Source of the DNA: Gemmatimonadota bacterium
GTDB taxonomy: Bacteria > Gemmatimonadota > Gemmatimonadetes > Gemmatimonadales > GWC2-71-9
Reading direction: 5' to 3'
Assembly (NCBI GenBank): GCA_039588335.1
Contig: JBDGZZ010000022.1
Span: 1,963 to 65,962, forward strand
DNA length: 64,000 nt
In this document: positions 6,950 through 55,636 of the stretch, one piece after another
How the letters are laid out: every line of letters starts with the position of its first letter
Position numbering within the stretch: the stretch's first letter is position 1
The notes under the pieces: model-generated
Databases searched by the model: none
What the model was told of the DNA's origin: nothing
The model's input: the letters and a program-made list of their open reading frames with translations, nothing else
Position numbers and translations under genes: made by a program

Positions 6950-6960
6950 TCGAGCGGCTG

Positions 6961-9666: not shown

Positions 9667-9865
9667 GTCTCCGTCTCTTTGAGTTCTCTTCTTGCCTAGC
9701 GTCATTCTGGATTGGCTCTCAATATAGCAACTGTGGTAGGCACGTGCGGTTGCGAGAGCATTTGCATTGCAAAGGTCCGCACGAGCGGTAACTTCCACAT
9801 GTTTAGCGAGTTCTCGAAGGCGTTGATTACCCCGCCTGCTAGCGGGATGTCGCGATAGGCCTCAC

Positions 9866-11269: not shown

Positions 11270-11280
11270 CGCGGACGTCC

Positions 11281-11700: not shown

Positions 11701-11920
11701 TAGTAGTCCCAGGAATTCACGATCGAATCAGCACCATCTGCCAGCAGGACTGGTGCTTGGCAAGAGAATCTGGCAAAAACAATGGCCGCTGGCAACGGTC
11801 GGCCCACGGTGAGCCCGACTCGCGGACTGCAACCGCTGCCGATATCTTAGCGGCCTAGGTGCTGCGAAATACCGGGAGCCTATGACGGTCTGCCGGTACC
11901 CGAGGACACAAGGAGAGATA

Positions 11921-27245: not shown

Positions 27246-27246
27246 C

Positions 27247-28155: not shown

Positions 28156-28187
28156 GTCATTCCCTTTCTGAAGGATGGGCGGTCTGG

Positions 28188-33985: not shown

Positions 33986-35902
33986 ATGACCACGACAACT
34001 CCTGCCCCGAGGACGGATTCGTTGCCCAAGATAGCTACGAAGAGGAAGAGACCGAGAGTCATCAAGGTAAAAGAGCACACGGTAGAGGTCGTGTCGGACT
34101 CTGGTGAAGGCGCACAGAAGTGTAGCCAGATCTTCGCTTCCGTCTCGGCCAAGATGGGCAACGGTGTCTGGACTGTTGAGATAATACCGGCGGAGATCCA
34201 GCCGCCACCGAGGACCCCGACCAGTGCCAGCGGTAACCGAATTCGCATCGGGGCCGGCCCGGTCACCAATTGGGGAGACGCTGCCAACCTCGTCATGGCG
34301 TTCAACGAGCAAGTGTTGCTCAACCGACACCGTCTCGATGCGCTCGCCGAGGATGCGATCATCCTGATCGACGATATGTGGCTGAAGCACGATGACCCGG
34401 ACATCCGCAAGCAGTGGGAGGAAGCGATCGAGGAGATGTCCGGACGTAACTACCGGTTCGTGATGGTGCCTCTGGAGGAGCAATCTCTCACAATCGTTGA
34501 GAATCCACGCCGGGGCAAGAACATGTTCGCACTCGGTGTGCTCGCCGCAATCTACTCCCGCGACTTGGACAAGATCCGCGACTTGATTGCTCTCCAGTTC
34601 AAGCGCAAGGCCAAAGTAATCTACGAGAATAACGTGGCGCTGCTGGAGTTGGGGCACAAATGGGCGAAGGAAAACCTCGACTTCCGAGTCGAGGTTCCCA
34701 CCAAAGAGTCTGATCGCCCGATGGTGGTGATGAACGGCAACCAGGCGGTCGGGTTCGGCGCCATAGCTGCTGGCATGGAGCTGTGCTCCATGTACCCGAT
34801 CACGCCGGCTACATCGGCGTCGCACCACCTGAGCGACATCTTCGAGCAGTTTGGCGGGGTCGTACACCAGGCCGAAGACGAGATCGCGGCGGCCGGCGTG
34901 GCGATCGGCGCGTCGTTTGCCGGTAAGGTTGCGTTTACCATCACATCAGGACCAGGCATGGCGTTGAAGACCGAGTTCCTCGGACTAGCCATCATGACCG
35001 AGGTCCCGCTGGTGGTAGTCGATGTGCAGCGCGGAGGCCCAAGTACCGGGCTCCCGACCAAGATTGAGCAAGGTGACCTGCTGTCCTCCATCTTCGGTCA
35101 GCCGGGCGATGCTCCGCACGTGGTAATGGCTCCGGCAACGATGGAAGAGTGTTTCCTATGTATGACCACTGCCCGGCGGATTGCAGAGGCATTCCGCTGC
35201 GTGGTCATAGTGCTGTCGGATGCCAATCTGGCTACGGGCGTGCAGCCGTTTCCACGGCCCGACCTCAAGTCGGAGTGGATGGCAGCCCCACTCGATCTGG
35301 CTCGGGTGCCCGAGGGCACGCTTCCCTACGATTGGGATACGCAGCTCGGTCTGTCCCAGCGGGTCATTCCGGGACAGCCGGGCGGGATGCACATTGTGAC
35401 CGGGCTCTCCCACGATGAGAACAGCAAGATCGGATACAGCCCCGACGTGCATGAGCGGGGCTGTCAGATGAGAGCTCGCAAGATGGCGGTATTCCAGCAG
35501 ACCCTGAAAAAGCCGGTGGTGCATGGAGACGAGTCAGGGGACCTGCTGGTAGTTGGATGGGGGAGCACTTGGGGGGCGATCGAGGAAGCGGTGGACCGGA
35601 GTCGTGAGGAGGGTTTGTCAGTTTCCTCACTTCACCTGCGTTTCCTCTCTCCGCTGGAGCCTGGCCTCAAGGACATCTTCAGCCGATTCAAGAAAGTGAT
35701 GACGGTTGAGGTCAATTACAGCGACGACCCGGGCGACCCCTTCATCACGGATGAGAATAGGCGCCGGGGCCAGCTCAGCTGGCTGCTAAGGGCCAGCACG
35801 CTTGTCGATGTTGATTGCTGGACCAGGGTTCCGGGCCAGCCGTTGCGTCCGGTTAACATTCTAGATGCCATTCGTCGTCACATGCCGAATGGGGTGAAAT
35901 AA
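33986..35902 (+). CDS. korA: 2-oxoacid (2-oxoglutarate):ferredoxin oxidoreductase, fused gamma/alpha subunit
   Basis: 638 aa. SDSGEGAQ...AEIQPP gamma-type N-terminus followed by an alpha domain (MYPITPATSASHHL, GPGMALKTE, DVQRGGPSTGLPTK). Confidence 0.85.
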   Translation: MTTTTPAPRTDSLPKIATKRKRPRVIKVKEHTVEVVSDSGEGAQKCSQIFASVSAKMGNGVWTVEIIPAEIQPPPRTPTSASGNRIRIGAGPVTNWGDAANLVMAFNEQVLLNRHRLDALAEDAIILIDDMWLKHDDPDIRKQWEEAIEEMSGRNYRFVMVPLEEQSLTIVENPRRGKNMFALGVLAAIYSRDLDKIRDLIALQFKRKAKVIYENNVALLELGHKWAKENLDFRVEVPTKESDRPMVVMNGNQAVGFGAIAAGMELCSMYPITPATSASHHLSDIFEQFGGVVHQAEDEIAAAGVAIGASFAGKVAFTITSGPGMALKTEFLGLAIMTEVPLVVVDVQRGGPSTGLPTKIEQGDLLSSIFGQPGDAPHVVMAPATMEECFLCMTTARRIAEAFRCVVIVLSDANLATGVQPFPRPDLKSEWMAAPLDLARVPEGTLPYDWDTQLGLSQRVIPGQPGGMHIVTGLSHDENSKIGYSPDVHERGCQMRARKMAVFQQTLKKPVVHGDESGDLLVVGWGSTWGAIEEAVDRSREEGLSVSSLHLRFLSPLEPGLKDIFSRFKKVMTVEVNYSDDPGDPFITDENRRRGQLSWLLRASTLVDVDCWTRVPGQPLRPVNILDAIRRHMPNGVK

Positions 35903-36855
35903 TGACACAGACAGAGTGCTCGCTGCTGGGCTGCGGAGTAGACGAGGACCAGTGGTACTCGATGGACGATTACGAAGGTGCGGTTGCGCGCTGGTGCCCG
36001 GGATGTGGTGACCATGCAGTGCTGACGGCCGTACAACGCCTTCTCGAAGCCGAGCAGTTGGTGCCAGAGAAGACGGTGTTCGTATCGGGTATCGGTTGCT
36101 CGAGCCGCTTCCCACACTACCTGAAGACATATGGGTTCCACGGACTCCACGGCAGAGCGCTGCCGGTGGCAACGGGAGTCAAGCTGCGCCGTCCGGATCT
36201 TCAAGTATTTGCGGTCATGGGCGACGGGGATTGCTGCTCGATCGGTGCAGCTCACTGGATCCACACCGTGCGCTACAACCCCAACATGGTTGCCCTGATG
36301 CTGGACAACGGGGTATACGGTCTGACCAAGAACCAGACGTCACCAACTTCTCCGGAGGGCTATCCCAGCAACACGCAGCCACGCGGTGCGGTTCTGGAAC
36401 CGATGAACCCTATTGCGACAACGCTCGGAGTAACGAATGCGTCTTTCGTGGCTCAGACTGGCGACTGGATTCCAGATCACTTGTACGAGACCATCGCGGC
36501 CGGATATCGACACAAAGGCTTTTCGTTCATCCGAGTGCTGCAGCGGTGCCCGGCGTACACGACTCCCCTGTTCGAGGAGGCTGTGCGCAACCCCGAATTG
36601 GTGGAGTTGATGGTGCATCCTGACGGCATACCGGTCAACGGTCTGGAGCAGATCTACAAGAACCATGTACCACACGATCCATCTGATTTGCACAACGGTC
36701 AACGGCTGGCGGACTTCGATTCCAAGATCCGGCTGGGCCTGTTCTACCGAAACGAGAGCATTCCCCGCTACGAAGAGGTCCGGCACCAGGCGAACCGTAC
36801 CGCGGAGGAAAAGATACAGTTGCTGAATGCGGAGCTAGATCGATATGCCGTCTGA
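35902..36855 (+). CDS. korB: 2-oxoacid:ferredoxin oxidoreductase beta (TPP-binding) subunit
   Basis: WCPGCGDHAVL, GIGCSSRFP and GDGD motifs. The ATG overlaps the korA stop (TAATG). Confidence 0.85.
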   Translation: MTQTECSLLGCGVDEDQWYSMDDYEGAVARWCPGCGDHAVLTAVQRLLEAEQLVPEKTVFVSGIGCSSRFPHYLKTYGFHGLHGRALPVATGVKLRRPDLQVFAVMGDGDCCSIGAAHWIHTVRYNPNMVALMLDNGVYGLTKNQTSPTSPEGYPSNTQPRGAVLEPMNPIATTLGVTNASFVAQTGDWIPDHLYETIAAGYRHKGFSFIRVLQRCPAYTTPLFEEAVRNPELVELMVHPDGIPVNGLEQIYKNHVPHDPSDLHNGQRLADFDSKIRLGLFYRNESIPRYEEVRHQANRTAEEKIQLLNAELDRYAV

Positions 36856-37858
36856 CGAACGGACCGAATTGGCGATCAAGGCGCTGGCTGGGCAGACGCA
36901 AGGCTTCCGGTCGGCGCTCGCCACTACCATAGAACAGATTCGCAGTTTCTTGGCGTCGCACGGATCGGCCACTGACGGGAAGGCGGTCCGATTCATGACT
37001 GAACTGGGCCCTTTTGCCGAGGGACTGATCGATGCAGATAGATTCTCAGCGTTGTTCGCTGACAACCTGAAACTCGATACGGTCACACTCGACACCATCG
37101 GGAAAGCGCTGGATACGCTGACGGAACTCGCGGATCGCGGAGATGACATCTTCAAGGTCGATATAGAAAGCGGCGAGAGCCTCAGAGAAGGTGTCGCAGG
37201 CGCTCTGGATGATTGCGGCCGAGCATTTGGGGCGGCACGTGTGTTCGAGTTATCGAAGTTCGGCCGGTTTCCGGACAGCGAGCACGCCCGCTCACTTGGC
37301 TCTTTCCCGTTCCACCGGTGGAGCAGGGGTGAGCGAAGGCTCGCCCCTCCCTTGGTCGTAAGTGTCGACGGGAGCGATTTGCGGGCTGCAGGGCTGGCAG
37401 ATTTCATGGATGGCACGCAGAAGATAGTGCTCGTGGTAAGGGGGGAGTCGACTCCCGTGCCGCTAGTGCGCCTGATCACTCCAGGCGTGTTCGTACAACA
37501 GACAACCGAGCCGGGCGACATCAGTCGGCTGGCTGCCTGTGACGGACCGGGCGTGACAGCCATCGTTCCGGAGTCCGCCGCCCGCTTCGTTCATGACCCG
37601 TCCGTTGGTCGAGAAGCTGGAGAACGTCTCACTGTTTCGACGTTGCCAGAGGAGAGACGCAGGAAGCCGGTCGGTGGCGTGAGTGTCTCGCAGCAGTCCG
37701 AGGAGTTGCTCCAGTTGAAGGTGCTGTCGGGGCAGATGGGGGCAGCAGCTCAGGTTGGTACGGCCGAACCTGTGGGGGCAGTGAGTGCATCCGCCGATCC
37801 GGTGGACAAGTTGGCAGCCTGGCTCTTGAGTCAAGCCGACTTGAAGGACCTCGGTTAG
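36845..37858 (+). CDS. hypothetical soluble protein (337 aa) embedded between korB and rnfB
   Basis: The ATG overlaps the korB end by 11 nt, and the stop lies 9 nt before rnfB. Amino-acid composition is normal, whereas the antisense ORF 36835-37563 is S/P/A/R-biased. No recognisable motif and only 2 Cys. Confidence 0.6.
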   Translation: MPSDERTELAIKALAGQTQGFRSALATTIEQIRSFLASHGSATDGKAVRFMTELGPFAEGLIDADRFSALFADNLKLDTVTLDTIGKALDTLTELADRGDDIFKVDIESGESLREGVAGALDDCGRAFGAARVFELSKFGRFPDSEHARSLGSFPFHRWSRGERRLAPPLVVSVDGSDLRAAGLADFMDGTQKIVLVVRGESTPVPLVRLITPGVFVQQTTEPGDISRLAACDGPGVTAIVPESAARFVHDPSVGREAGERLTVSTLPEERRRKPVGGVSVSQQSEELLQLKVLSGQMGAAAQVGTAEPVGAVSASADPVDKLAAWLLSQADLKDLG

Positions 37859-37867
37859 TCTGAGCCA

Positions 37868-38719
37868 ATGGAAGTCTCGACCATCCTTGGTTCTGCAGCG
37901 ATACTCGGAGGGGTAGGGCTCACGTTCGGCACGCTGATCTCCCTTGCCCACCTGAAGCTCAAGGTTTGGGAAGATCCCCGAATCGACGAAGTCACAGACC
38001 TTCTGCCAGGTACGAACTGCGGAGCCTGCGGACGAGCCGGATGCCATGCGTTCGCTGAGGCGTTGGTAGACGGCAACGTGCAGCCGGCGACATGTACAGT
38101 CATGGGCCCTGACGATGTGTTCGACGTGGCTGGGTACCTTGGCGTGGAGGCTGGCGAAGCCAACAAACGTGTGGCTCGCCTGCTCTGCGCGGGCGGATGC
38201 GATGTCGCCGAGCAACAGGCCGAGTATAGAGGCTTGCGGAACTGCAAGGCCGCTGTGACGGTTGCCGGAGGCGGTAAGGGATGCGCCTGGGGTTGCCTAG
38301 GGCTGGACGACTGTGAACGATCGTGTGATTTCGAAGCGATCTACATGAACGCAGTTGGGATTCCGATTGTCATCCCCGAGAAGTGTACGGCGTGCGGTGA
38401 CTGCGTTGAAGCTTGCCCTCTCGATTTGTTCACTCTGATGCCGATCGAGCAGAAGTTGATCGTGCAGTGCAAGAACCTGATAGATGGTGACGAGGCGGAG
38501 GCCGCCTGCAAGGTTGCGTGCACGGCGTGCGGCAGGTGCGCCGCTGACGGGGCACCAGGCCTGATCGAGATGGTCAACGGCCTCGCAGTTATTGACTACG
38601 ACAAAAACGAGTTGGCTACTCCGGACGCCATCGCCCGGTGTCCGACGGGGGCCATCGCATGGGTTGATGGAGCTCAGTTTGCTGATACGCCCGAATTGGC
38701 GAGGAGCGCTACGGTATGA
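37868..38719 (+). CDS. rnfB: Rnf complex subunit B (membrane-anchored polyferredoxin)
   Basis: N-terminal TM helix, NCGACGRAGCHAFAEAL...ATC motif, and ferredoxin-type CTACGDCVEACP and CTACGRC...RCP clusters. Confidence 0.9.
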   Translation: MEVSTILGSAAILGGVGLTFGTLISLAHLKLKVWEDPRIDEVTDLLPGTNCGACGRAGCHAFAEALVDGNVQPATCTVMGPDDVFDVAGYLGVEAGEANKRVARLLCAGGCDVAEQQAEYRGLRNCKAAVTVAGGGKGCAWGCLGLDDCERSCDFEAIYMNAVGIPIVIPEKCTACGDCVEACPLDLFTLMPIEQKLIVQCKNLIDGDEAEAACKVACTACGRCAADGAPGLIEMVNGLAVIDYDKNELATPDAIARCPTGAIAWVDGAQFADTPELARSATV

Positions 38720-41700
38720 AACGCAACAAAGCTAGTGAAGCATCAGCTAAGGCCAAGTACCCCGGGATCGTTACCGCGGTTGACGGGAGTACGGCAGTCG
38801 TCGAGGTGGAAACTGCGGCCAGCGAAGCGGCCGGTGCATATCCGATCACGCCGTCCACGCAGATGGGTGAGGGGTGGGCTGCCGCGTTGGCGGCGGGCAG
38901 GAAGAACGTAAATGGCCGCAAGCTGATCTTCTTCGAGCCCGAAGGAGAACATGCGGCAGCGGCGGTGACCGCCGGTATGTCGATGACCGGTCTGCGGGCA
39001 ACGAATTTCTCCAGCGGTCAGGGCATCGCATACATGCACGAATCGCTGTACCCGGCGGTGGGTAAGCGGCTGACCTATGTGCTGAACGTCGCAGCTCGCG
39101 CGATGACAAAGCACGCCTTGAACGTGCATGCCGGGCACGACGACTACCACGCGGTCGATGATACGGGTTTCTTCCAGCTCTTCGCCAAGAACCCTCAGGA
39201 GATAGCCGACCTCACGCTGATCGCGCACCGGACGGCCGAGCTGTCGCTGAATCCGGGGCTGTGTGCCCAAGACGGGTTCCTCACCAGTCATGTGATCGAG
39301 TCGGTGAGGCTGCCTGAGCGCGAGATGATCAAGGAGTATCTCGGCGATCCGTCAGACATCATCGAATCGCCCACGCCGGCGCAACGTCTCGTCTTCGGTG
39401 AGAAGCGCCGCCGGATTCCGGAGATGTTCGACCTAGACTACCCGGCGATGATCGGTGTCGTTCAAAACCAGGATTCCTACAATCAGGGCGTCGCTGCCCA
39501 GCGTCCGTTCTACTTCGATCACGTAGTGGCTCTTGCCGATCAGGCGATGGCCGAGTTCGAGGCGCTGACCGGCCGGCGCTATGCTCGCGTAATGTGCTAC
39601 CGCATGGATGATGCGGAATACGTGATCGCGGGACAGGGATCGCTGGTGTCAAATGCCGAGGTTGTTTGTGACTATCTGCGCGAGAGTAGGGGTCTCAAGG
39701 TCGGGGTCCTGAATGTCACCATGTTCCGTCCGTTCCCTTCAGACCTGATGTCTGAGACGTTGCGGGGCAAGAAATCCATCACGGTACTCGAACGAACAGA
39801 TCAGCCATTGGCTGTAGATGCCCCACTATTGCGAGAGATGCGGGCGGCCATGGGCAAAGCTCTGGAGAACTCGCGGGCAGGTGCTGGTGAAGTCCCGCAT
39901 TCGGGCGTTGTGTCGTGCGGTGCAGATGAGATCCCGGAGTTCTTCTCTGGTTGCTTCGGACTCGGCAGCCGGGACATTCAGCCCGGTCAACTCGTGGCCG
40001 CAGTTGAGAACATGTTGGAGGATGGAAAGAGACGACGTCAGTTCTATCTGGGGATCGATTTCGTGCGTGCGGGGACCCAGTTGCCCAAGCTTCAAATCTG
40101 GCAGGAACAACTGCTCGAGGGCTATCCCGACATTGCGGATCTGGCGCTGGCGTCGAAGGAGGATCTCAACCTACTGCCCGAGGATGCTATCTCCATCCGT
40201 ATCCACTCAGTGGGTGGATGGGGAGCCATCACCATGGGGAAGAACCTGGCAATGACGGCGGCCGACCTTTTCGGCCTCAACATCCAGGCGAATCCCAAGT
40301 ATGGGTCCGAGAAGAAGGGGCAACCGACCACGTTCTACGCGACGCTGGCAGAAGAGGTGCTGCGGCTGAATTGTGAGTTGAAGCATGTCAACGTTGTCCT
40401 CGCTCCTGACCCCAATGTGTTCAAGCACTCGAATCCGCTGGCAGGGATTGCGGACAACGGTGTCTTCATCATCCAGAGCGATTTCGACGCAGAGACTTTC
40501 TGGAACAGCCTGCCGGGGACGGCGCAACGCGCGCTGAAGTCGAAGGGCGTGAAGGTCTACCTGCTAGACGCGTTCGCGATCGCTTCGGCCGAGGCATCGG
40601 ATCCGGCACTGCGGTATAGGATGCAGGGTGCGGCATTCATGGGTGCGTTCTTCCACGTTTCACCTCTAGTCGATCGGTATAAGCTGGAAGAGGAGAAGCT
40701 ATTTGACGGCATTCGCGCGCAGCTGAAGAAGAAGTTCGGGCACCTGGGCGAACGTGTGGTTGAGGACAACGTCCGGGTCATTCGGAGGGGCTTCGATGAG
40801 ATCAGGGAACTGGACATCGAGCACCTGAGTACAGAGAAGTCAGAAGCTGGTTCAGTGCCGCAGATGCCGGACGTTCTGGACGGTGCGGGCTGGCAGGACG
40901 GAATTGGCAACCCCGGAAGATTCTGGGAGCAGGTCTGCCATCTCTACAAGACGGGAGATGATGGCATTGCTGATCCGTTCGCGGCGATCAGCGCGATTCC
41001 GGCAGCAACGAGTACCATCCGCGATATGACGGATGTTCGCTTTGAGATCCCGGACTTCGTGGCGGAGAAGTGTACCGGTTGCGGCCAATGTTGGGTGCAA
41101 TGTCCGGATACTGCGATTCCGGGATTGGTGACCGAAGTCGACCAGGTCATCTACGCGGCCATAAATACGGTGTCCAACGGTAAGTCGTACGACCGATTGC
41201 GACAGGTGGTACCGCATATCGCTCGCGAATCGCGGCGCATAATGAAGGGCGTCGCAGTCAAATCGTTTGCCGATATCATGTCGAGCGCTTATGAGAGTGT
41301 GGCGGAAAAGCTGAAGCTCGATCCGGAGCGGCGTTCGGCACTCGACGGCGAATTCGGTTCAGTCTATTCAGCCTTGGCCGACTTCCCGCTTGCGAAAACA
41401 GCCCCATTCTTCGATGTCCCCGAGGATCAGGAGAAGGGAACCGGAGCGCTCCTCTCAATCACGGTCAATCCGGAGACGTGCAAGGGGTGCAATATCTGTG
41501 TAGACGTGTGCCCTGACGAAGCACTCGTGACGATCAAACAAGATGAAGAGGCAGTTGACAAGCTGCGGCGGAATTGGGCGTTGTGGCAAAACCTGCCGGA
41601 AACGGACGATCGGTACATCAACATCTCTAACATGGACGAAGGCATCGGGGTTCTCTCGTCCCTGTTGCTCAAGAAGCACAATTACAGGTCTATGATGGGT

Positions 41701-43755
41701 GGTGACGGGTCATGCATGGGCTGCGGTGAGAAGACGGTCATTCACCTGGTCTTGTCAGCAGTCAACGCGCTCATGATTCCACGAGTGCAGAAATATGTAG
41801 ACAAGTTGGACGACCTCATATCACGACTCGATGCCAAGGCTCGGGACATACTCGTATCTGAGGCAGATCTGGATAAGGTCGGGTCAAGTGAGGGTGAGGT
41901 GGAGATCCCCCTCGAGAAATCGAAGCAGGGACAGGTCGAGCACTTGAACAGTGTCATGCACGATCTGAAGGATCTCCGCTGGCGATATGCGGAGGGACCA
42001 AGCGGGAAAGGTAGGTCGACCTTGGGCATGACGAACGCCACGGGTTGCTCATCCGTGTGGGGGAGTACCTATCCATATAACCCGTACCCATTCCCATGGA
42101 CCAACCATCTGTTCCAGGATGCGCCTTCCATTGCGATCGGAATCTTCGAAGGCCACATGCGGAAGATGGCAGATGGTTTCATTGCCGTCCGTCGCGCTGA
42201 GCTGGAGTTGAGCGGAGAGTATGAGGCCGAGACACACGAGCCTTTCTTCTCTGAGTTTGACTGGCGCCAGTTCGATGACGCCGAGTTCGCCATGTGTCCG
42301 CCGATCTTTGCCGTGGGCGGCGACGGCGCGATGCTCGACATCGGTTTCCAGAACCTGTCGCGACTGCTGGCATCTGGGAAACCGATTCGGGTTATCGTAC
42401 TGGACACACAAGTCTACTCGAATACGGGAGGACAGGCCTGCACCAGCGGATTCCTGGGTCAGGTGTCCGACATGGCGGCCTACGGTGCCGGGCAGCATGG
42501 GAAGGAGGAGATGCGCAAGGAACTTTCTCTGATCGCCATGGCACATGGGCGAGTCTTCGTACTTCAGTCAACGCAGGCGGCTGCATCACATTTGATCGAA
42601 GGTGTACTGAAGGGGCTCCAATCCAAGTGTCCTGCCGTGTTCGGGCTGCATTGCCCTTGTCCTCCAGAGCATGGACTGGGCGACGACCAGGCCACCAGGG
42701 CATCACGTCTCGCCATGGAGAGTCGAGCCTACCCGGTTCTGATGTACGATCCGTTCGGTGGGGACTATATCAGCGAACAGCTGACTCTGGACGGGAACCC
42801 CTCGGTAGACGAGACATGGCCTACCTATGAGGTCAGCTACCTCGACGACGGTGGTGAAGAGAAACGACTCGAGTTGCCGGTTACGATTGCCGACTGGGCT
42901 GCCACGGAGACGCGGTTCCAGAAACACTTCAAGACGATCAAGGGCGATGTAGATGAAGACGGCCTGGTGCCGTTTCACGAGTACATGGTACTACCGAGCG
43001 ACGAACGTGAGGAAAAGACTCCCATCATCTATCAGATTGATGACGAGAAAAAGCTCACACGTCTCTTTGTGTCCGGCGAGATGGTCGAGCTGGCCGAGGA
43101 TCGGCTGCGAGTCTGGTCGCAACTCAAACAAATGGCTGGACTCGAGTTGGCACCCGACGTGAGGGACGGTGTCGAGTATGAACTGGAGGCGGAGTTCAAC
43201 AAGAAGGCAGAAGCTCTGCAAACAGAGTACACAGCGCAGTTGGCGCAGTTGAAGGCGCGGTATCCAGCCCTGGTGGCTCGCAAGCTGGCCGAAGGGCTCG
43301 TGCGGGCAGGAAACGGTGGGCGGACAGTCGAGGACTTGCTGGCTCAGGTTCAGGAAATGCCGCTTGCTCCCGTCACGGCCGAGATGGCTGGTGACGGCGA
43401 CCTTGCGGCGGCTCCGGCGGCTGCAACGGCGCCGGGAACAGTAGCGGCGGCTACAGCCGTGGCTGAGGCACCTGCGGCCGTAGAGGAGGAGGAAGAGGAG
43501 GGGCTGGTGATGGAGCCGTACATCGATTCGGCTCGATGCACCACGTGCGATGAATGCACGAACCTCAACAATAAGATGTACGCATACAACGAGAAGAAAC
43601 AGGCATATATAAAGGATCCCAGGGCAGGAACTTTCAAGCAACTTGTGCAGGGTGCCGAGAAGTGTCCCGTTCGCATCATACATCCGGGAACACCTCTCAA
43701 CCCGAGGGAGAAAGATCTGGAGAAGTGGGTCAAGCGGGCCGAGCCCTTCAACTGA
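38716..43755 (+). CDS. por: PFOR/NifJ-family single-polypeptide 2-oxoacid:ferredoxin oxidoreductase, unusually long (1679 aa) with a C-terminal ferredoxin domain
   Basis: AYPITPSTQMGE (domain I); HSVGGWGAITMGKN...PKYGSEKKGQPT (domain III); CTGCGQCWVQCP and CKGCNICVDVCP (domain V); GDGSCMGCGEK, ATGCSSVWG, GGDGAMLDIGFQNL and VLDTQVYSNTGGQ (TPP domain). The C-terminal part has an Ala/Pro/Glu linker followed by CTTCDEC...CP. Confidence 0.9.
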   Translation: MKRNKASEASAKAKYPGIVTAVDGSTAVVEVETAASEAAGAYPITPSTQMGEGWAAALAAGRKNVNGRKLIFFEPEGEHAAAAVTAGMSMTGLRATNFSSGQGIAYMHESLYPAVGKRLTYVLNVAARAMTKHALNVHAGHDDYHAVDDTGFFQLFAKNPQEIADLTLIAHRTAELSLNPGLCAQDGFLTSHVIESVRLPEREMIKEYLGDPSDIIESPTPAQRLVFGEKRRRIPEMFDLDYPAMIGVVQNQDSYNQGVAAQRPFYFDHVVALADQAMAEFEALTGRRYARVMCYRMDDAEYVIAGQGSLVSNAEVVCDYLRESRGLKVGVLNVTMFRPFPSDLMSETLRGKKSITVLERTDQPLAVDAPLLREMRAAMGKALENSRAGAGEVPHSGVVSCGADEIPEFFSGCFGLGSRDIQPGQLVAAVENMLEDGKRRRQFYLGIDFVRAGTQLPKLQIWQEQLLEGYPDIADLALASKEDLNLLPEDAISIRIHSVGGWGAITMGKNLAMTAADLFGLNIQANPKYGSEKKGQPTTFYATLAEEVLRLNCELKHVNVVLAPDPNVFKHSNPLAGIADNGVFIIQSDFDAETFWNSLPGTAQRALKSKGVKVYLLDAFAIASAEASDPALRYRMQGAAFMGAFFHVSPLVDRYKLEEEKLFDGIRAQLKKKFGHLGERVVEDNVRVIRRGFDEIRELDIEHLSTEKSEAGSVPQMPDVLDGAGWQDGIGNPGRFWEQVCHLYKTGDDGIADPFAAISAIPAATSTIRDMTDVRFEIPDFVAEKCTGCGQCWVQCPDTAIPGLVTEVDQVIYAAINTVSNGKSYDRLRQVVPHIARESRRIMKGVAVKSFADIMSSAYESVAEKLKLDPERRSALDGEFGSVYSALADFPLAKTAPFFDVPEDQEKGTGALLSITVNPETCKGCNICVDVCPDEALVTIKQDEEAVDKLRRNWALWQNLPETDDRYINISNMDEGIGVLSSLLLKKHNYRSMMGGDGSCMGCGEKTVIHLVLSAVNALMIPRVQKYVDKLDDLISRLDAKARDILVSEADLDKVGSSEGEVEIPLEKSKQGQVEHLNSVMHDLKDLRWRYAEGPSGKGRSTLGMTNATGCSSVWGSTYPYNPYPFPWTNHLFQDAPSIAIGIFEGHMRKMADGFIAVRRAELELSGEYEAETHEPFFSEFDWRQFDDAEFAMCPPIFAVGGDGAMLDIGFQNLSRLLASGKPIRVIVLDTQVYSNTGGQACTSGFLGQVSDMAAYGAGQHGKEEMRKELSLIAMAHGRVFVLQSTQAAASHLIEGVLKGLQSKCPAVFGLHCPCPPEHGLGDDQATRASRLAMESRAYPVLMYDPFGGDYISEQLTLDGNPSVDETWPTYEVSYLDDGGEEKRLELPVTIADWAATETRFQKHFKTIKGDVDEDGLVPFHEYMVLPSDEREEKTPIIYQIDDEKKLTRLFVSGEMVELAEDRLRVWSQLKQMAGLELAPDVRDGVEYELEAEFNKKAEALQTEYTAQLAQLKARYPALVARKLAEGLVRAGNGGRTVEDLLAQVQEMPLAPVTAEMAGDGDLAAAPAAATAPGTVAAATAVAEAPAAVEEEEEEGLVMEPYIDSARCTTCDECTNLNNKMYAYNEKKQAYIKDPRAGTFKQLVQGAEKCPVRIIHPGTPLNPREKDLEKWVKRAEPFN

Positions 43756-43762
43756 TCTTCCA

Positions 43763-45085
43763 ATGTTCCACAAGTTCACGTTCCGGCACGGGGTCCACCC
43801 GCCCGAGCTCAAGCAGCTGACCGAGTCGCTTCGGATCCGGCGCATGCCGTTTCCGGACGAAGTGGTGCTACCGCTCAGTCAGCACACTGGGAAACCGGCT
43901 ACGGTAATGGTGCGTCCGGGAGACCGGGTCGAACGCGGCGACAAGATAGCTGATGCCGACGGGTTCATCTCCGCTCCGGTCCACGCGTCCGCCGCAGGGA
44001 CAGTGGAAGACATCGGTCTGTGGCCACACCCGCTGGGGTCATACTCGCCGGCGGTCCGAATAACAGTGGACCGCTATTCGGCACAAGCTGCGAGGCCCCG
44101 AGTAGTACCGGAGTGGGAGGGCCTCACTCCCGACGGGATTCGCCAGGCCGTGAAGGACGGTGGGCTGGTGGGATTGGGAGGCGCCGCGTTCCCCACCCAT
44201 GTGAAACTGAGTCCCCCCAAAGACAAGCAACTCGACACCCTCATCATAAATGGCTGCGAGTGCGAGCCCTATCTGACGACTGACCATCGTACCATGGTGG
44301 AGTATCCCGAGCGCGTGCATCTGGGGATTCGCATAATGATGCAATGTCTGGGTGTGGGCCGCACGATGATCGGTATCGAAAAGAACAAGCCGGATGCTAT
44401 CGACGCAATTCGGGATACGCTTCCTGCCGACCTGGATGTGACGGTACATCCATTGACGGTGAAATATCCCCAGGGTGCGGAGAAGATGCTCATCGAGGCT
44501 TTGGCGGAGAGGGAGGTGCCTTCTGGAAAGCTGCCGCTAGACGCCGGTGTGGTGGTACAGAACGTTGCATCGGTTGCCACTATAGCGGAAATCTTTGAAA
44601 CCGGGCTGCCACTGATCGAGCGTATCGTCACAGTCACCGGTCACGGCATCAAGGACCCGTCCAACCTGATCGTTCCGGTCGGTACCAAATTGGCTGATCT
44701 GCTCGATACGTGTGGCGGCCTCACGGACGACGCTTTCGAGATCGTGTTTGGCGGTCCCATGATGGGTGCTGCGCAGGCCAACCTCGACGTGCCGATTCTC
44801 AAGGGCACTACTGGAGTAGTGGTCCTCACGGAATCGCAATGCAGGGCCAAGGAGTCTCATCCGTGCATCAGGTGTGGGCACTGTCTGGATGCCTGTCCCG
44901 TCTTCTTGAACCCACAGTTGTTGGGGAGTTTGGCGCGAGCAGAGCGGTGGGAAGAGATGGAAGGCAACCACCTTCTCGACTGCATGTTGTGTGGCTGCTG
45001 TTCCTATGCGTGTCCCTCCAATATTCCGCTGAGCCAGATGTTTGCACTGGGCAAGGCTGCTCTACGAAAGAGCAAGGCGGCGTGA
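43763..45085 (+). CDS. rnfC: Rnf complex subunit C
   Basis: MFHKFTFRHGVHPPE N-terminus, GLVGLGGAAFPTHVKL, CIRCGHCLDACP and CMLCGCCSYACP motifs. ATG 43763 is preferred over the track start at 43643. Confidence 0.9.
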   Translation: MFHKFTFRHGVHPPELKQLTESLRIRRMPFPDEVVLPLSQHTGKPATVMVRPGDRVERGDKIADADGFISAPVHASAAGTVEDIGLWPHPLGSYSPAVRITVDRYSAQAARPRVVPEWEGLTPDGIRQAVKDGGLVGLGGAAFPTHVKLSPPKDKQLDTLIINGCECEPYLTTDHRTMVEYPERVHLGIRIMMQCLGVGRTMIGIEKNKPDAIDAIRDTLPADLDVTVHPLTVKYPQGAEKMLIEALAEREVPSGKLPLDAGVVVQNVASVATIAEIFETGLPLIERIVTVTGHGIKDPSNLIVPVGTKLADLLDTCGGLTDDAFEIVFGGPMMGAAQANLDVPILKGTTGVVVLTESQCRAKESHPCIRCGHCLDACPVFLNPQLLGSLARAERWEEMEGNHLLDCMLCGCCSYACPSNIPLSQMFALGKAALRKSKAA

Positions 45086-46086
45086 CGACACCTTCCTTTC
45101 TGATAACTGCCTCTCCACACCTGGGATCACGCGATACCACGCCGACTATCATGTGGTCGGTAGTCCTCAGTTTAGTTCCGGTCGTGGCGGTATCGATCTT
45201 CTACTTCGGACCCTCTGCTGTCCTTGTGATTTCAGCTGCAACCGCCGGGGCAGTCATCACGGAGTATGCATTTGGTGCCAAGGGAACTCTGAAAGACGGA
45301 TCGACTGCCATAACCGGAGTGCTGCTGGGATTGACGCTCCCCCCGGGATTGCCGATATGGATGGCCTTTCTGGGTGGGGTTTTCGGTATCGGATTCGGGA
45401 AGCTGATTTTCGGAGGCCTGGGGCAGAACATCTTCAATCCAGCACTCCTTGGGCGAGCGTTCCTGCAGGCGGCTTTTCCCGTTGCGATCACGACCTGGCC
45501 AGCGCTGGGTGGTAGCTGGTGGAGTCTGCGGGGCGACAACTTCGCACTTCCCTTGATGAGTCCCAATGTCCCGGACGCTTTGACCGGTGCAACACCGCTC
45601 GGGCTCATGAAATTCGATCAGATGACGACCGCGAGCAGCGATCTAATAATGGGGTCGGTGGGTGGTTCACTGGGGGAGACTTCCGGTGTCGTCATTCTGA
45701 TTTGCGGTGCCTATCTTGCTCTGAGGAACCACCTCAATTGGCGAATCCCGGCGAGCATATTCCTGACGGTGGCAGTTTTGGCCGGCGGAGTACACTTGCT
45801 CGATCCGGTGCGTTACCCCAACGCGATCTTCATGCTGTTTTCCGGCGGCCTGATGCTGGGAGCGGTGTACATGGCGACCGACATGGTGACTTCGCCGGTC
45901 ACAAACCGCGGCTGCTGGGTGTTCGGATTCGGTATCGGGTTTCTGGTGGTGGTCATCAGACTGTGGGGTGGGCTGCCCGAAGGAGTCATGTACGCAATCC
46001 TGCTCATGAACGCGCTGGTTCCGTTCATTAATCGGGCGACGCAACCACGAGTGTTCGGTACTCGGCTGAAGGAGGCACGGTCTTGA
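45082..46086 (+). CDS. rnfD: Rnf complex subunit D
   Basis: Polytopic membrane protein. GTG overlaps the rnfC stop (GTGA). DALTGATPL flavinylation motif; YMATDMVTSP. Confidence 0.9.
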   Translation: MTTPSFLITASPHLGSRDTTPTIMWSVVLSLVPVVAVSIFYFGPSAVLVISAATAGAVITEYAFGAKGTLKDGSTAITGVLLGLTLPPGLPIWMAFLGGVFGIGFGKLIFGGLGQNIFNPALLGRAFLQAAFPVAITTWPALGGSWWSLRGDNFALPLMSPNVPDALTGATPLGLMKFDQMTTASSDLIMGSVGGSLGETSGVVILICGAYLALRNHLNWRIPASIFLTVAVLAGGVHLLDPVRYPNAIFMLFSGGLMLGAVYMATDMVTSPVTNRGCWVFGFGIGFLVVVIRLWGGLPEGVMYAILLMNALVPFINRATQPRVFGTRLKEARS

Positions 46087-46766
46087 CCGGCGGTAGCCAG
46101 CAGGGCCAGGCGAACGGACCAGGGGCACCTCCCATGAGACCGGAGGTTCCTCCGTGGAAGTTACTGTCCACGCTCGGCACGGCCGGGGCTGTTGCTGGCC
46201 TCTTGATCGTCTTCGTTTTCGTTGCGACTGAGCCGGCCATCAAGGCCCACAAGGCTGAGGTGTTGAGGTTGGCGATCCAGGAAGTCCTCAAAGGTCCTGA
46301 CAGTTTCGACACGCTGTTTGTGGTTGAGGGGAGGCTGGAGGAGGAGCCACCAGCAGGAGTGAATCTCGAGGCACTCGAGCATGTGTACGTTGGGTACGGA
46401 GTGGATGGGAACCAGCTGGGATTTGCGATTGCCTCCGGGGAACCTGGGTTTCAGGACATAATCCGACTGATCTTCGGTTATGACGCATTCAATCGTACCG
46501 TCCTGGGCATGAAGGTCTTGGAGAGCAAGGAGACACCGGGGCTAGGGGACAAGATTGAGAAGAATCTGGATTTCGTGCAACAATTCGAAGGTGCAGTGAC
46601 GCCCCTCGAGGGAGTGAACCCGAGGCGCGCCACAGGTGACGAGCACGAAATCGACATGATCACGGGAGCGACGATATCCTCCCGTGCGGTAGTACGCATC
46701 ATCAACAACGCAATGGAGCGGCTGGGGCCGCTCATTGACGAATACAATGGCGGAGGGAGCCGATGA
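46083..46766 (+). CDS. rnfG: Rnf complex subunit G (FMN-binding)
   Basis: Single N-terminal TM helix and the DMITGATISSRAV FMN-attachment motif. The TTG start overlaps the rnfD stop; an alternative ATG lies at 46134. Confidence 0.85.
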   Translation: MTGGSQQGQANGPGAPPMRPEVPPWKLLSTLGTAGAVAGLLIVFVFVATEPAIKAHKAEVLRLAIQEVLKGPDSFDTLFVVEGRLEEEPPAGVNLEALEHVYVGYGVDGNQLGFAIASGEPGFQDIIRLIFGYDAFNRTVLGMKVLESKETPGLGDKIEKNLDFVQQFEGAVTPLEGVNPRRATGDEHEIDMITGATISSRAVVRIINNAMERLGPLIDEYNGGGSR

Positions 46767-47419
46767 GAGCGACGACTCCGCAGCAGGATTTCATGCGTGG
46801 CATCTGGAGAGAGAATCCAGTGCTCATTCAGATGCTCGGACTGTGTCCTGCGCTGGCGGTGACCAATACGGTGAAAAACAGCATCGCCATGGGGCTCGCC
46901 ACGTTTTTCGTGCTGACGGGGTCCAGCCTCTTGGTCTCTCTATTCAAGCGGTTCATACCGCACGAGGTACGCATATCCACATATATCCTGATCATTGCGA
47001 CGTTCGTGACGATCGCCGACATGACGCTCGAGGCGGTGGTCCCCGACATACACAAGGCGTTGGGTGCGTTCATTGCGCTGATCGTTGTCAACTGCATGAT
47101 CCTCGGACGCCAAGAAGCCTTTGCGTCGAAGAAGCCGGTGGGCCGCGCGCTATTGGACGCCTTTGGAACGGGGATCGGTTTCATAATAGCCATGTTGATG
47201 ATGGGTACCGTCAGGGAAGTGTTGGGCAACGGATCGTTCCTCGGCGTCAGCCTGTTCGGTCCCAATTTTGAACCGTGGGTGGTGTTCATACTTCCTCCAG
47301 GCGGATTCCTGACGATCGGATTCATCTTGCTGGGGTTGAGTTGGATCGAGCGCAGGAGAAAACAGAAGCCTATGGTGCGGGAATGGCCTGAAGGCGTAGC
47401 CTCGGAGAAGGCGGCATGA
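46763..47419 (+). CDS. rnfE: Rnf complex subunit E
   Basis: NPVLIQMLGLCPALAVT motif, 6 TM helices, ATGA overlap with rnfG. Confidence 0.9.
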   Translation: MRATTPQQDFMRGIWRENPVLIQMLGLCPALAVTNTVKNSIAMGLATFFVLTGSSLLVSLFKRFIPHEVRISTYILIIATFVTIADMTLEAVVPDIHKALGAFIALIVVNCMILGRQEAFASKKPVGRALLDAFGTGIGFIIAMLMMGTVREVLGNGSFLGVSLFGPNFEPWVVFILPPGGFLTIGFILLGLSWIERRRKQKPMVREWPEGVASEKAA

Positions 47420-47997
47420 CCAGCGACCTGCTATGGATCCTGATCTCGGCGATGGTGGTAAATAACTTCACGCTCGCCTATTTCCTCGGTCTGTGCCCCT
47501 TCATGGGAGTATCTGGTCGAGTGGAGACCGCCATCAGGATGGGGGCAGCGAACATATTCGTCCTGACCATCACGGCCATCTGTGCGTGGTTTCTCAACAC
47601 ATATATTCTGCCATATGCGCCATACTTGCGACTGATTTCTTTCATTGTCGTCATAGCATCCCTGGTGCAGATCGTTGAAATGACGATCAAGAAGATCAGT
47701 CCCACGCTGTTCAGACAACTTGGGATATATTTGCCTTTGATAACCACGAACTGCGCAATCCTCGGTTTTGCTATCTTCGCAACAAACCGGGGTTACGGGT
47801 TCTTCCAAGGTCTCTCATTTGCCATCGGTGCCGGGCTTGGCCTGACGCTTGCATTGGTGCTCATGGCATCCATAAGAGAGAATAGTGAGTTGGTGGATGT
47901 ACCAGAAGTTGCCAAGGGAACGGCCCTCGTGTTCATCATTGCCGGATGTCTGTCCTTGGCGTTCATGGGATTCGCCGGACTGTTGACTTCCACATGA
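47416..47997 (+). CDS. rnfA: Rnf complex subunit A
   Basis: NNFTLAYFLGLCPFMGVS motif, 6 TM helices, ATGA overlap with rnfE. Confidence 0.9.
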   Translation: MTSDLLWILISAMVVNNFTLAYFLGLCPFMGVSGRVETAIRMGAANIFVLTITAICAWFLNTYILPYAPYLRLISFIVVIASLVQIVEMTIKKISPTLFRQLGIYLPLITTNCAILGFAIFATNRGYGFFQGLSFAIGAGLGLTLALVLMASIRENSELVDVPEVAKGTALVFIIAGCLSLAFMGFAGLLTST

Positions 47998-48167
47998 TTG
48001 AAGTCCTGGCCATTCTTGGGTTTGCAGTACTGTTCGCGGTATTTGGAGCCCTCCGGGGCAGGGTGCAGGAGTCGCATCGGTGCGATGCCTGCCCGGGCCG
48101 GGAAGATCCGGGTGCCTGCGGGATCTGTCATACCTTACGCGATATTTCGGAGTCAAGCCATGCATAA
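47994..48167 (+). CDS. 57-aa membrane miniprotein: one TM helix plus a 2x CxxC tail (NqrM-like or FeoB-associated Cys-rich type architecture)
   Basis: MIEVLAILGFAVLFAVFGALRGRVQESHRCDACPGREDPGACGICHTLRDISESSHA. The ATG overlaps the rnfA stop (ATGA), and the stop overlaps the apbE start by 8 nt. Confidence 0.55.
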   Translation: MIEVLAILGFAVLFAVFGALRGRVQESHRCDACPGREDPGACGICHTLRDISESSHA

Positions 48168-49158
48168 AACTGAGTCGACTGATGCCTCTGGTCCCAGTCG
48201 GCGTGATGTAGTCCTACTAGGGATTGGTGCGTTTGCTGTTGCGGCGGTCCCGTTCCTAGGGGTGGGCCGTAGGCGTCTCTTTAGAAGGACCGTACCCGTG
48301 ATGGGTACGGTCGCTGACATAGGTGTAGTGGACAGAAACAACGACTATGCGCAGGCTGCTATTGATGCCGCAATCCAGCAGTTACGCTACGTCGATCGCA
48401 CGATGTCGCGGTTCAGTGAGGCATCAGACGTCGGTCGGGCAAACCGATTGGCTGCTGCTGACGGTACATGCATCACGAAAGCCACAGCAACCGTGATCGA
48501 AGAGGGACTGCGTTGGGCGGCGGCCAGTGAAGGTGCGTTCGATCCATGCCTCGGCACAGCCGTCGGTCTCTGGGATGTGAAACATCGTACCAAGCCCCCG
48601 GAGAAAGACCAAGTTGCCCAACTGGCAGGCCGAAACCTCTACAGAAAGCTCGATTTGGGTGAATCCGGCGACAGGCCGGTCGTACGCCTCACAGAGGCTG
48701 ATGTCGCGATCGACCTGGGCGGCATCGCCAAGGGCTACGGAGTGGACCTGGCAGTGCAGTCGCTCAGGGAGTGGGGTATCGAACACGCGCTGGTCAACGT
48801 GGGTGGAGATCTGTACGCCATGGGTGAGTCGGAGGACGGTGATCCCTGGAGTGTAGGAGTCAGATCGCCTTACGCTCCCAGCAAGGTGACACACCGCTTC
48901 GAGATCGCCGACCAGGCAGTCGCTACCTCAGGCGATTATCTCCAGTACTTCCGTTATGGGGGCAGGAGTTACCACCATCTGCTCGATCCCAGTACGGCTG
49001 CCCCTCGACGCGGGGACGTCCACAGCGTGACGGTGACAGCCGACAATTGCATGGCTGCGGACGCCGCGGCTACTGCGGTGTTCGGAATGCCACGCGAAGA
49101 GGCAGATGCGTTACTCGGTATCAGAGCGCCCAGCGCGAAGATAGTAAGCGTGGACTAG
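48160..49158 (+). CDS. apbE: FAD:protein FMN transferase
   Basis: Export-type N-terminus (SRRDVVLLGIGAFAVAAVPF), DLGGIAKGYGVD motif, TSGDY motif. ATG 48160 is preferred over the track start at 47998. Confidence 0.85.
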   Translation: MHKTESTDASGPSRRDVVLLGIGAFAVAAVPFLGVGRRRLFRRTVPVMGTVADIGVVDRNNDYAQAAIDAAIQQLRYVDRTMSRFSEASDVGRANRLAAADGTCITKATATVIEEGLRWAAASEGAFDPCLGTAVGLWDVKHRTKPPEKDQVAQLAGRNLYRKLDLGESGDRPVVRLTEADVAIDLGGIAKGYGVDLAVQSLREWGIEHALVNVGGDLYAMGESEDGDPWSVGVRSPYAPSKVTHRFEIADQAVATSGDYLQYFRYGGRSYHHLLDPSTAAPRRGDVHSVTVTADNCMAADAAATAVFGMPREEADALLGIRAPSAKIVSVD

Positions 49159-49182: not shown

Positions 49183-49219
49183 GGGGAACGGGATATGCGC
49201 CCCGTTCCCCTTTTTCTTT
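49183..49219 (+). terminator. rho-independent terminator closing the kor-rnf-apbE operon
   Basis: GGGGAACGGG (49183-49192) and CCCGTTCCCC (49201-49210) form a perfect 10-bp stem. It is followed by TTTTTCTTT. Confidence 0.8.
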
Positions 49220-49285
49220 GGGGATGCTAATTTGGCAGTGTGGCACGAGCATGGTTACACGACGCAGTAGACGGTGGTTCTTGTC

Positions 49286-51170: not shown

Positions 51171-51171
51171 A

Positions 51172-55260: not shown

Positions 55261-55636
55261 GATTTTGACACTCCTTCTTGCGAAACAGGTGAAAAGACAA
55301 ACGCCGGAACGGCCCTGGGCCGTCCTCGGCATGTACGGATCTTGTGGTTGTGACACAACAGTGCGGCCCGACTCGGCTGGCAACGATGAGCTAAATCACA
55401 GTTCTTCGGGTCATTGTCCTTGGGATATGTTCGGTGGGATATTATGTGAAGGCCTTTAAATATTGCAATGACAAGTGCTTAGGTGAAGGCCCTTAATGTG
55501 GATAATAGGTGAACCCTGGGATTTGCGACCGAACTTGTAAGTCGATTCGTGGCGGTGCGGGCCCCGCGATGGCCTGGCCGGAAGGGTCAGTGTTACATAC
55601 CGTGTGCAGGCGCTTTGTCGACTGAGGATTCTGAGT

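Follow-up and report, generated by a model that had tools for sequence, protein, structure and literature searches.

A long pyruvate:ferredoxin oxidoreductase-type gene with a predicted tethered ferredoxin domain is located between rnfB and rnfC in a conserved operon of Gemmatimonadota

Organization of the Locus

The stretch of DNA analysed here, hereafter the window, comprises 64,000 nt of contig JBDGZZ010000022.1 (assembly GCA_039588335.1) of a Gemmatimonadota bacterium, and all positions are given in its numbering. The window contains the genes of an Rnf complex, and the subject of this study is a gene of the pyruvate:ferredoxin oxidoreductase (PFOR) type, designated POR, that is located among them. 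According to the open reading frame (ORF) table, rnfB occupies positions 37868–38719 (+), and the POR gene, with 5040 nt and 1679 codons, occupies positions 38716–43755 (+). The ATG of the POR gene overlaps the TGA of rnfB as ATGA around position 38716 (GGTATGAAACGC). The POR stop codon TGA (43753–43755) is followed by seven nucleotides (tcttcca) and then by the rnfC ATG at position 43763. The rnf genes are located on one strand in the order B, C, D, G, E, A, and rnfB is separated from rnfCDGEA by the 5040-nt POR gene; thus, the six rnf genes are not contiguous. The first-pass annotation of this DNA, made from the sequence alone, had reported this split together with the ATGA overlap and the 7-nt gap, and both junctions were confirmed in the sequence. 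The order B...CDGEA, which it had assigned to the type known from Bacteroidota and Chlorobiota, indeed matches the rnfBCDGEA order of Chlorobi/Bacteroidetes (PMC4014512).

Three further genes, namely korA, korB and a gene designated X, are located upstream of rnfB in the same orientation, each overlapping the next gene or nearly abutting it, and apbE follows rnfA. All the genes of the operon are co-oriented, with overlaps or gaps of no more than about 10 nt. A terminator-like hairpin (49183–49210, +) with a 10-bp stem, including 8 GC pairs, and a T-rich tail was found 25 nt past the apbE stop codon, where it closes the operon. It is the only strong terminator-like hairpin on the + strand. Since the upstream genes nearly abut and the sole strong + strand hairpin follows apbE, the unit was delimited from korA (33986) to apbE (49158). 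A promoter scan was uninformative (5 sites versus 5.9 expected). The locus is a conserved operon of about 15 kb, stated as 12-gene, with the order korA-korB-X-rnfB-POR-rnfC-rnfD-rnfG-rnfE-rnfA-apbE. The unit rnfB-por-rnfCDGEA proposed in the first-pass annotation is correct in its order, but the co-conserved korA, korB and X upstream and apbE downstream had been missed.

Domain Architecture of the POR

The product of the POR gene (38716–43755, +) is a long-form POR of 1679 aa with a ferredoxin domain, in which PFOR domains I, II, III, V and VI were recognized. The order of the Pfam domains is POR_N, PFOR_II, POR, two Fer4 motifs and TPP_enzyme_C. The protein is about 450 aa longer than the canonical PFORs (~1170–1230 aa) and scores 422.5 bits against TIGR02176, the cut-off of which is 911.35. 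Membership in the canonical PFOR family (TIGR02176/NifJ) was rejected on the basis of this score and the length. The name PFOR given to the gene earlier is therefore appropriate as to the domain order and ligands, but the protein is not an ordinary PFOR, being a long form with a tethered ferredoxin.

The additional material was located by alignment to the PFORs of Moorella thermoacetica (6cin) and Desulfovibrio africanus (1b0p). Domain V contains about 85 extra residues between its two cluster motifs, and about 85 extra residues were also found in domain VI between the second and third ligands of the proximal cluster; the helical insertions lie at residues ~803–905 and ~1004–1092. The remaining extra sequence is a C-terminal extension of about 200 aa, which consists of a long helix (~1480–1531), a linker and a ferredoxin domain.

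A census of functional motifs revealed T45 (in YPITP), E78 and R128 (AAR), which are aligned with the substrate and thiamine pyrophosphate (TPP) residues of 6cin, namely the pyruvate-binding Thr and Arg and the TPP-activating Glu. The cysteine ligands of domain V are C786/789/792/796 and C922/925/928/932, and those of the proximal cluster are C1000, C1003, C1111 and C1315. The TPP/Mg motif is represented by GDG at residues 1202–1204 and N1236-x-GG (NTGGQ). The cysteine ligands, GDG and NTGGQ are invariant in an alignment of 41 sequences of the family. From these residues, the POR is predicted to be catalytically competent and to keep the ligands for three [4Fe-4S] clusters. Its substrate would be a 2-oxoacid, most likely pyruvate.

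The linker (43357–43545, +; POR residues ~1548–1610) is a low-complexity Ala/Pro/Glu-rich segment of about 60 residues. In the AlphaFold 2 model, its predicted local distance difference test (pLDDT) values are below 50 (model residues 1069–1131), and across the family members it is hypervariable between conserved flanks. The single-cluster ferredoxin domain (43522–43683, +; POR residues ~1603–1656) contains the motif CxxCxxC...CP, was detected as Pfam Fer4_13 (E 2.6e-7) and matches D. africanus Ferredoxin I (PDB 1dax). The ferredoxin motif was found in 116 of 121 close family members, and its four cysteines are invariant in the 41-sequence alignment. These characteristics allow us to read the C-terminus as a putative single-[4Fe-4S] ferredoxin domain on a disordered, flexible tether.

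Conservation in Close Relatives

One genome per species was scanned, and 459 genomes were found to encode a POR relative. Synteny was counted in the best 80 loci (61–83% POR identity), and only loci with sufficiently long flanks were included in each count. These loci come mostly from metagenome-assembled genomes (MAGs) of Gemmatimonadota; some are labelled Rokubacteria, Planctomycetota, Acidobacteriota, Eisenbacteria and others. It was revealed that rnfB is located directly upstream of the POR gene in 65/65 loci, and X (60/60), korB (56/57) and korA (52/54) were also found upstream. Downstream of the POR gene, rnfC is present in 58/60 loci, rnfD in 51/53, rnfG, rnfE and rnfA in 47/49 each, and apbE, after rnfA, in 36/48. 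As for the two loci without rnfC after the POR gene, one (L001) has a 100-N scaffold gap in the assembly at this place, and the other (L072) contains an IS91 transposase and integrases at 6292–10464. In one Gemmatimonadaceae MAG (L061), apbE (11124–12125) is located between rnfG and rnfE and not after rnfA.

Of 74 loci, 60 show a 4-nt overlap between the rnfB stop and the POR start and another 8 show an overlap of 1 nt (68/74 in total), and the two genes are predicted from this to be translationally coupled. The median identity was 67% for POR, 68% for rnfB and 71% for rnfC, i.e., POR is as conserved as the Rnf core. In addition, POR co-diverges with the Rnf core (Spearman 0.6–0.8).

Contiguous rnfBCDGEA operons exist in related FCB-group bacteria, and one could suppose that a PFOR gene was recently inserted into such an operon in a single lineage and that its position has no functional meaning. 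The first-pass annotation had named relatives with a recent, unconserved insertion as the finding that would speak against its interpretation. The comparison was made, and the arrangement proved to be conserved, as follows from the counts given above for rnfB, rnfC and the overlap; the insertion scenario fails. It is also at odds with the number of species genomes that hold a relative, with the occupation of the same slot at 27–38% identity in MAGs labelled Calditrichota, Cloacimonadota, Planctomycetota and Methylococcaceae, and with the base composition, which is uniform across the window. A recent insertion thus appears scarcely credible, and a horizontally transferred island was rejected on the basis of the uniform composition and synteny. 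A search for RnfB homologues returned close relatives only (at least 68% identity) and thus provided no outgroup to date the insertion.

Distant Relatives in the Same Slot

An exhaustive search was performed with POR residues 480–1679 as the query, and the best 150 cluster representatives were considered. Among these, 77 were at least 1400 aa long, with identities of 27–64%. The source names of some of the long POR-like proteins point to Methylococcaceae, Calditrichota, Cloacimonetes, Leptospiraceae and Propionibacteriaceae MAGs. The genomic context was retrieved for 12 representatives, and in 8 of them rnf genes adjoin the POR gene. The slot between rnfB and rnfC is filled by POR relatives at 27–38% identity in other phyla. 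The order korA-korB-X-rnfB-POR-rnfCDGEA was found in L083 (27% identity; X of 845 aa), in a Calditrichota MAG (L085; X of 1460 aa) and in L094 (X of 847 aa), and the Cloacimonetes loci L088/L089 contain korB-X-rnfB-POR-rnfCDGEA with an X of 763 aa. A Planctomycetota bin (L093) has the same layout as the window. Shorter arrangements were seen in L081 (36% identity; rnfB-POR-rnfC-rnfD) and L082 (X-rnfB-POR-rnfC), and in a Methylococcaceae MAG (L084), where only the upstream rnfB was seen, rnfB-POR is followed by IS1 (15053–15810). The Rnf-embedded long POR family, as delimited here, comprises proteins of at least 1400 aa whose domains V and VI contain helical insertions and whose genes directly follow rnfB and precede rnfC. 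The POR of the window has these features, as do those of the 80 loci and of L081–L085, L088, L093 and L094.

In L094, genes of an ATP-citrate-lyase-like protein (ATP-grasp_2, Citrate_bind) and isocitrate dehydrogenase (1–3354) are located directly upstream of the cluster, which hints at a link to the reductive tricarboxylic acid (rTCA) cycle.

The motif census of these proteins showed that the catalytic residues, GDG/NxGG and the proximal cysteines are kept only in the family of the window POR and in a few others. Four proteins (P0365, P0374, P0381 and P0383) keep all the cluster ligands and lack the catalytic Thr and Glu. One of them, P0374, is the POR of L093, so this locus shares the layout of the window while its catalytic integrity may differ. 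In most of the distant proteins embedded among rnf genes, the eight cysteines of domain V (two clusters) are all that remains of these features, the catalytic residues and the ligands of the proximal cluster having been lost; in P0412, for example, the part corresponding to domain VI is free of cysteine. The retention of a dead enzyme between rnfB and rnfC would be best explained if it served as an electron-transfer or scaffold partner of Rnf. The persistence of such dead, cluster-bearing POR-like proteins in this slot leads us to infer a physical association between the POR scaffold and Rnf.

Given that most of the wider Rnf-embedded family is catalytically degenerate, the POR of the window could itself be a pseudo-enzyme that, like its counterparts in the distant clusters, serves only as an Fe-S wire or scaffold, with KorAB as the sole catalytic 2-oxoacid:ferredoxin oxidoreductase (OFOR) of the operon. 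The window POR and its close family keep every ligand checked, namely T45, E78, R128, GDG, NTGGQ and the four proximal cysteines, and this possibility, which we regard as very improbable, was rejected on motif conservation.

The members of the family are annotated as 'pyruvate-ferredoxin/flavodoxin oxidoreductase' or '2-oxoacid:acceptor oxidoreductase family protein', yet most of the distant ones are catalytically degenerate. With the catalytic residues and the proximal cluster missing from such proteins, PFOR activity may be over-called when metabolism is reconstructed from MAGs.

In the clusters with such degenerate POR-like proteins, designated type B, the long X is a POR paralogue with 27–30% identity to POR residues ~982 or 1126 to 1678. 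In these clusters (L082, L083, L085, L088 and L094), the linker and ferredoxin domain are located at the end of X and not of POR. A tethered carrier is present on POR or X in every cluster with a readable X position. The X of L085 (3742–8124; 1460 aa) is a near-full-length POR paralogue that aligns with POR residues 3–358, 526–887 and 982–1678 and bears the tethered ferredoxin. Judging by the alignments, it looks like an intermediate in a decay series of 1460, 845/763 and 337 aa, the last being the length of X in the window.

Comparison with Known Systems

In most Proteobacteria, the rnf order is ABCDGE, while BCDGEA is found in Chlorobi/Bacteroidetes (PMC4014512); the order CDGEAB has its closest relatives in Firmicutes (PMC3534657). 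Caldithrix abyssi possesses six contiguous rnfBCDGEA genes (PMC5317091). The contiguous rnfBCDGEA operons of Bacteroidota, Chlorobiota and Caldithrix have the same order and the same long polyferredoxin type of RnfB as the window; unlike the window, they contain neither a gene between rnfB and rnfC nor korAB-X upstream.

The first-pass statement that the rnf genes are contiguous in all known orders does not hold. In the rnf2 operon of the gammaproteobacterial gill symbiont of Solemya velum, PFOR genes were reported between rnfB2 and rnfC2, and pyruvate was suggested as the electron donor of Rnf (Dmytrenko et al. 2014, PMC4287430). Like in the window, a PFOR occupies the rnfB–rnfC slot there. 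The report consists of one sentence in a genome paper and contains nothing on protein length, a tethered ferredoxin, catalytic state, korAB/X or distribution. The relative from the Methylococcaceae MAG (L084) suggests that the S. velum PFOR may belong to the same family as the window POR. In the searchable literature, no other account of a PFOR gene located between rnfB and rnfC was found, and PFOR-rnf clusters are absent from a 2025 review of Rnf and Nqr. No description of the long-form architecture, the tethered ferredoxin, the korAB-X partners, the X paralogues with a ferredoxin domain, the dead derivatives or the distribution in more than 450 genomes was found in the literature searched. 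Thus, the gene order itself has a published precedent, and the system represents a widespread variant of the PFOR/Rnf partnership that is as yet uncharacterised and for which a distinctive mechanism is proposed.

With the canonical homodimeric PFORs of D. africanus (1B0P) and M. thermoacetica (6CIN), the window POR shares the domain order, the TPP/Mg motif, three [4Fe-4S] clusters and the substrate Thr/Arg. It differs from them in the additional length, insertions and C-terminal extension described above and in its location inside an rnf operon. In fermenters, electrons pass from a 2-oxoacid to ferredoxin, RnfB and NAD+ with ion export (PMC7414866, PMC10542786, PMC12174285). There (Thermotoga, Prevotella, acetogens), the ferredoxin is diffusible and the genes are unlinked, whereas in the window the carrier is tethered and the genes are interleaved and predicted to be translationally coupled. 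Pyruvate:NADP+ oxidoreductase of Euglena and Cryptosporidium is a PFOR hard-wired to a pyridine-nucleotide reductase; it is a soluble flavoprotein fusion and pumps no ions. The Ala/Pro-rich swinging arms of the E2 component of 2-oxoacid dehydrogenases carry lipoate and not an Fe-S cluster. The window POR shares the concept of hard-wiring with the former and a carrier on an Ala/Pro-rich linker with the latter.

Proposed Electron Path

Rnf is regarded as a complex of six subunits that receives its electrons from diffusible ferredoxin. The presence in several phyla of an operon with a giant PFOR-type protein carrying a putative tethered ferredoxin points to a substrate-level input into Rnf that would not involve a free ferredoxin pool. 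The reading that we favour, with somewhat better than even confidence, is that the POR is a hard-wired 2-oxoacid:NAD+ module feeding Rnf via its tethered ferredoxin. The POR would oxidise its 2-oxoacid with CoA, and the electrons would pass through the three internal clusters to the ferredoxin domain, which would swing to RnfB and its polyferredoxin part. This C-terminal domain of RnfB is described as the site that accepts electrons from cytoplasmic ferredoxin, and the electron transfer between ferredoxin and NAD+ by Rnf is reversibly coupled to ion translocation (PMC12174285). In the window, Rnf would hand the electrons to NAD+ at RnfC and export Na+ or H+. The single-cluster KorAB, which has no ferredoxin domain of its own, would probably share the tethered carrier. 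The net result would be an ion-pumping equivalent of the pyruvate and 2-oxoglutarate dehydrogenases, yielding NADH and an ion gradient with no need for a free ferredoxin pool. Such an energy-conserving stand-in for these dehydrogenases would make sense of a central metabolism linked to ferredoxin in Gemmatimonadota, which are generally considered an aerobic phylum.

Since the arrangement is strongly conserved and recurs at 27–38% identity, functional and probably also physical coupling with RnfB is favoured. The stoichiometric co-synthesis and the possible PFOR-RnfB contact put forward in the first-pass annotation are conjectures. A more far-reaching version was also considered, in which X and the POR, or the degenerate proteins descended from it, belong to Rnf as genuine subunits and enlarge it to a supercomplex. 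Such an assembly, bound to the membrane, would act as a 2-oxoacid:NAD+ oxidoreductase that pumps ions, and a ferredoxin on a swinging arm would take the place of the soluble pool; in other phyla, the enzyme would have decayed to an Fe-S wire or scaffold that still docks KorAB onto Rnf. We hold this version to be possible, with doubts outweighing the arguments for it.

Several observations weigh against the proposed coupling. The spacer between POR and rnfC is looser than the rnfB junction, ranging from −31 to +283 nt (median 10). The residue equivalent to Ile123 is Val in the POR, and substrate specificity is read from few residues. The AlphaFold 2 model of the POR is of moderate quality (mean pLDDT 67). 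No fusion of RnfB and POR was found among the homologues listed, and in the distant L094 the gene neighbours hint at operation in the reductive direction. Some long PORs that are catalytically intact but have no ferredoxin domain are encoded elsewhere than next to rnf genes (four were checked, namely P0378, P0379, P0403 and P0435), and because of this the long form as such is not Rnf-specific. Finally, membership in the operon alone could mean co-regulation only.

According to the last possibility, a free cytoplasmic POR would be co-produced with Rnf without forming a stable complex, and its ferredoxin domain would dock to RnfB transiently or serve other acceptors too. The lack of predicted membrane segments in POR and X agrees with this, as does the lack of RnfB-POR fusions noted above; elsewhere, canonical PFOR and Rnf cooperate through diffusible ferredoxin (PMC10542786, PMC7414866). 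However, co-regulation of a working enzyme cannot explain why dead POR-like proteins are kept between rnfB and rnfC across phyla; moreover, the ATGA overlap with rnfB is almost invariant, and a covalently tethered carrier would be pointless unless its acceptor were nearby. Co-regulation as the whole explanation is therefore judged rather unlikely.

The chemistry of the module is reversible, and the same hardware could run reductive carboxylation. In that direction, Rnf driven by NADH and the ion gradient would reduce the tethered ferredoxin, the POR would act as a pyruvate synthase and KorAB as a 2-oxoglutarate synthase, with CO2 or acetate being assimilated via the rTCA cycle or anaplerosis; the operon would then supply low-potential electrons for reductive carboxylation. 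The reactions of both Rnf and OFORs are reversible (PMC12174285). The type-B cluster of L094 adjoins the ATP-citrate-lyase-like and isocitrate dehydrogenase genes described above. For the Riftia symbiont, clustering of Rnf with rTCA genes has been described, as has, separately, the co-variation of a 'PFOR-like' gene with dimeric korAB (PMC11636981). On the other hand, no ATP-citrate lyase, fumarate reductase or other rTCA marker was found in the 64-kb window, which has the profile of a heterotroph (peptidases, sugar catabolism, the oxidative pentose-phosphate pathway and an O2-dependent fatty-acid desaturase), and the neighbours of one distant locus are not transferable to the lineage of the window. 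The reverse direction as the main role in this lineage is improbable to much the same degree as co-regulation alone, and the oxidative path into Rnf is preferred.

Two of the four long PORs located away from rnf, from Leptospiraceae and Propionibacteriaceae MAGs, are followed by the gene of an Nfn/GltD-like NAD(P)-linked oxidoreductase (Fer4_20 and Pyr_redox_2; L086, 10001–18397, and L087, 10001–17041). In L086, this gene also encodes the FAD_binding_6, NAD_binding_1 and DHODB_Fe-S_bind domains. The arrangement of L086 and L087 would correspond to a soluble route from POR to NAD(P)+.

Other Genes of the Operon

The first gene of the operon, korA (33986–35902, +), encodes a gamma-alpha fusion, the alpha subunit of a two-subunit OFOR. 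The protein scores 533 bits against TIGR03710 (OAFO_sf; cut-off 482.75), contains the Pfam domains POR, POR_N and PFOR_II, and has 6n2n as its best PDB match (E 6e-80). The TPP-binding beta subunit encoded by korB (35902–36855, +) contains TPP_enzyme_C and PFO_beta_C; its score against TIGR02177 (233 bits) is slightly under the cut-off of 261.9.

X (36845–37858, +) encodes a conserved soluble protein of 337 aa, which had no match in Pfam or NCBIfam, and all of its 958 homologues are named hypothetical. Its AlphaFold 2 model has a pLDDT of 82.8, and a Foldseek search gave no PDB fold match below E 0.2. The alignment of X with the 845-aa X of L083 using hhalign had a probability of 80% (E 1.4e-5). 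A weak match to POR residues 1148–1375, the TPP domain (E 0.0036), was in a register consistent with that alignment. X, which has no Fe-S ligands, is probably TPP-domain-like and what is left of a decayed POR paralogue. No other gene of the cluster evolves as fast (median identity 45%).

All six Rnf subunit genes were identified with Pfam and NCBIfam. RnfB (37868–38719, +), the ferredoxin-side entry subunit, comprises an N-terminal transmembrane helix (hydrophobic segment at residues 6–28), a four-cysteine FeS domain and a polyferredoxin part, with 21 cysteines. It was assigned to the Pfam families FeS (PF04060) and Fer4, scores above the TIGR01944 cut-off, and aligns over residues 5–264 with RnfB of Acetobacterium woodii (9eri_B, E 3e-56) and with that of Clostridium tetanomorphum (7zc6_B). 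RnfC (43763–45085, +), the NAD(H)-side subunit, contains RnfC_N, Complex1_51K, SLBB and Fer4 and scores 524 bits against TIGR01945 (cut-off 246). RnfD (45082–46086, +; NQR2_RnfD_RnfE, E 6e-102) has a TGAT motif for the attachment of flavin mononucleotide (FMN) at residue 168, and RnfG (46083–46766, +; FMN_bind) has a TGAT motif at residue 194. The Rnf-Nqr family was found in both RnfE (46763–47419, +; E 2e-63) and RnfA (47416–47997, +; E 1e-54). The last gene, apbE (47998–49158, +), encodes a FAD:protein FMN transferase, which flavinylates RnfG and RnfD. Its Pfam ApbE match (E 2e-72) begins at residue 102, and its true start is probably downstream of 47998. With the FMN motifs, the transmembrane helix and cysteine set of RnfB, and ApbE all present, the Rnf set of the window looks functional as judged from its sequence.

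Wider Window

A Memo-like gene, also named AmmeMemoRadiSam system protein B (49274–50107, +), is located directly after the operon terminator and follows the cluster in L002, L004 and L006 as well. A second korAB pair (50145–52992, −), consisting of korA2 (51172–52992) and korB2 (50145–51251), converges on the end of the rnf operon. A second pair was also found downstream in L002, L004 and L039.

Two adjacent ORFs of 253 and 464 aa at positions 53231–55383 (−) had no Pfam match. A fatty-acid desaturase of the O2-dependent type (20412–21602, −) and an oxidative pentose-phosphate string (25025–29822, −; 6PGL, G6PD, 6PGD and PGI-like) are also encoded in the window, and genes of glucoamylase, glucokinase and trehalose-6-P synthase are located near them. 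The desaturase and sugar-metabolism genes suggest an O2-exposed heterotroph, which would be notable beside the oxygen-sensitive OFOR/Rnf machinery. An unusual ORF of 1169 aa (3440–6949, +) encodes a molybdopterin oxidoreductase (Molybdop_Fe4S4, Molybdopterin and Molydop_binding) fused to a C-terminal class-V aminotransferase/cysteine-desulfurase-like domain.

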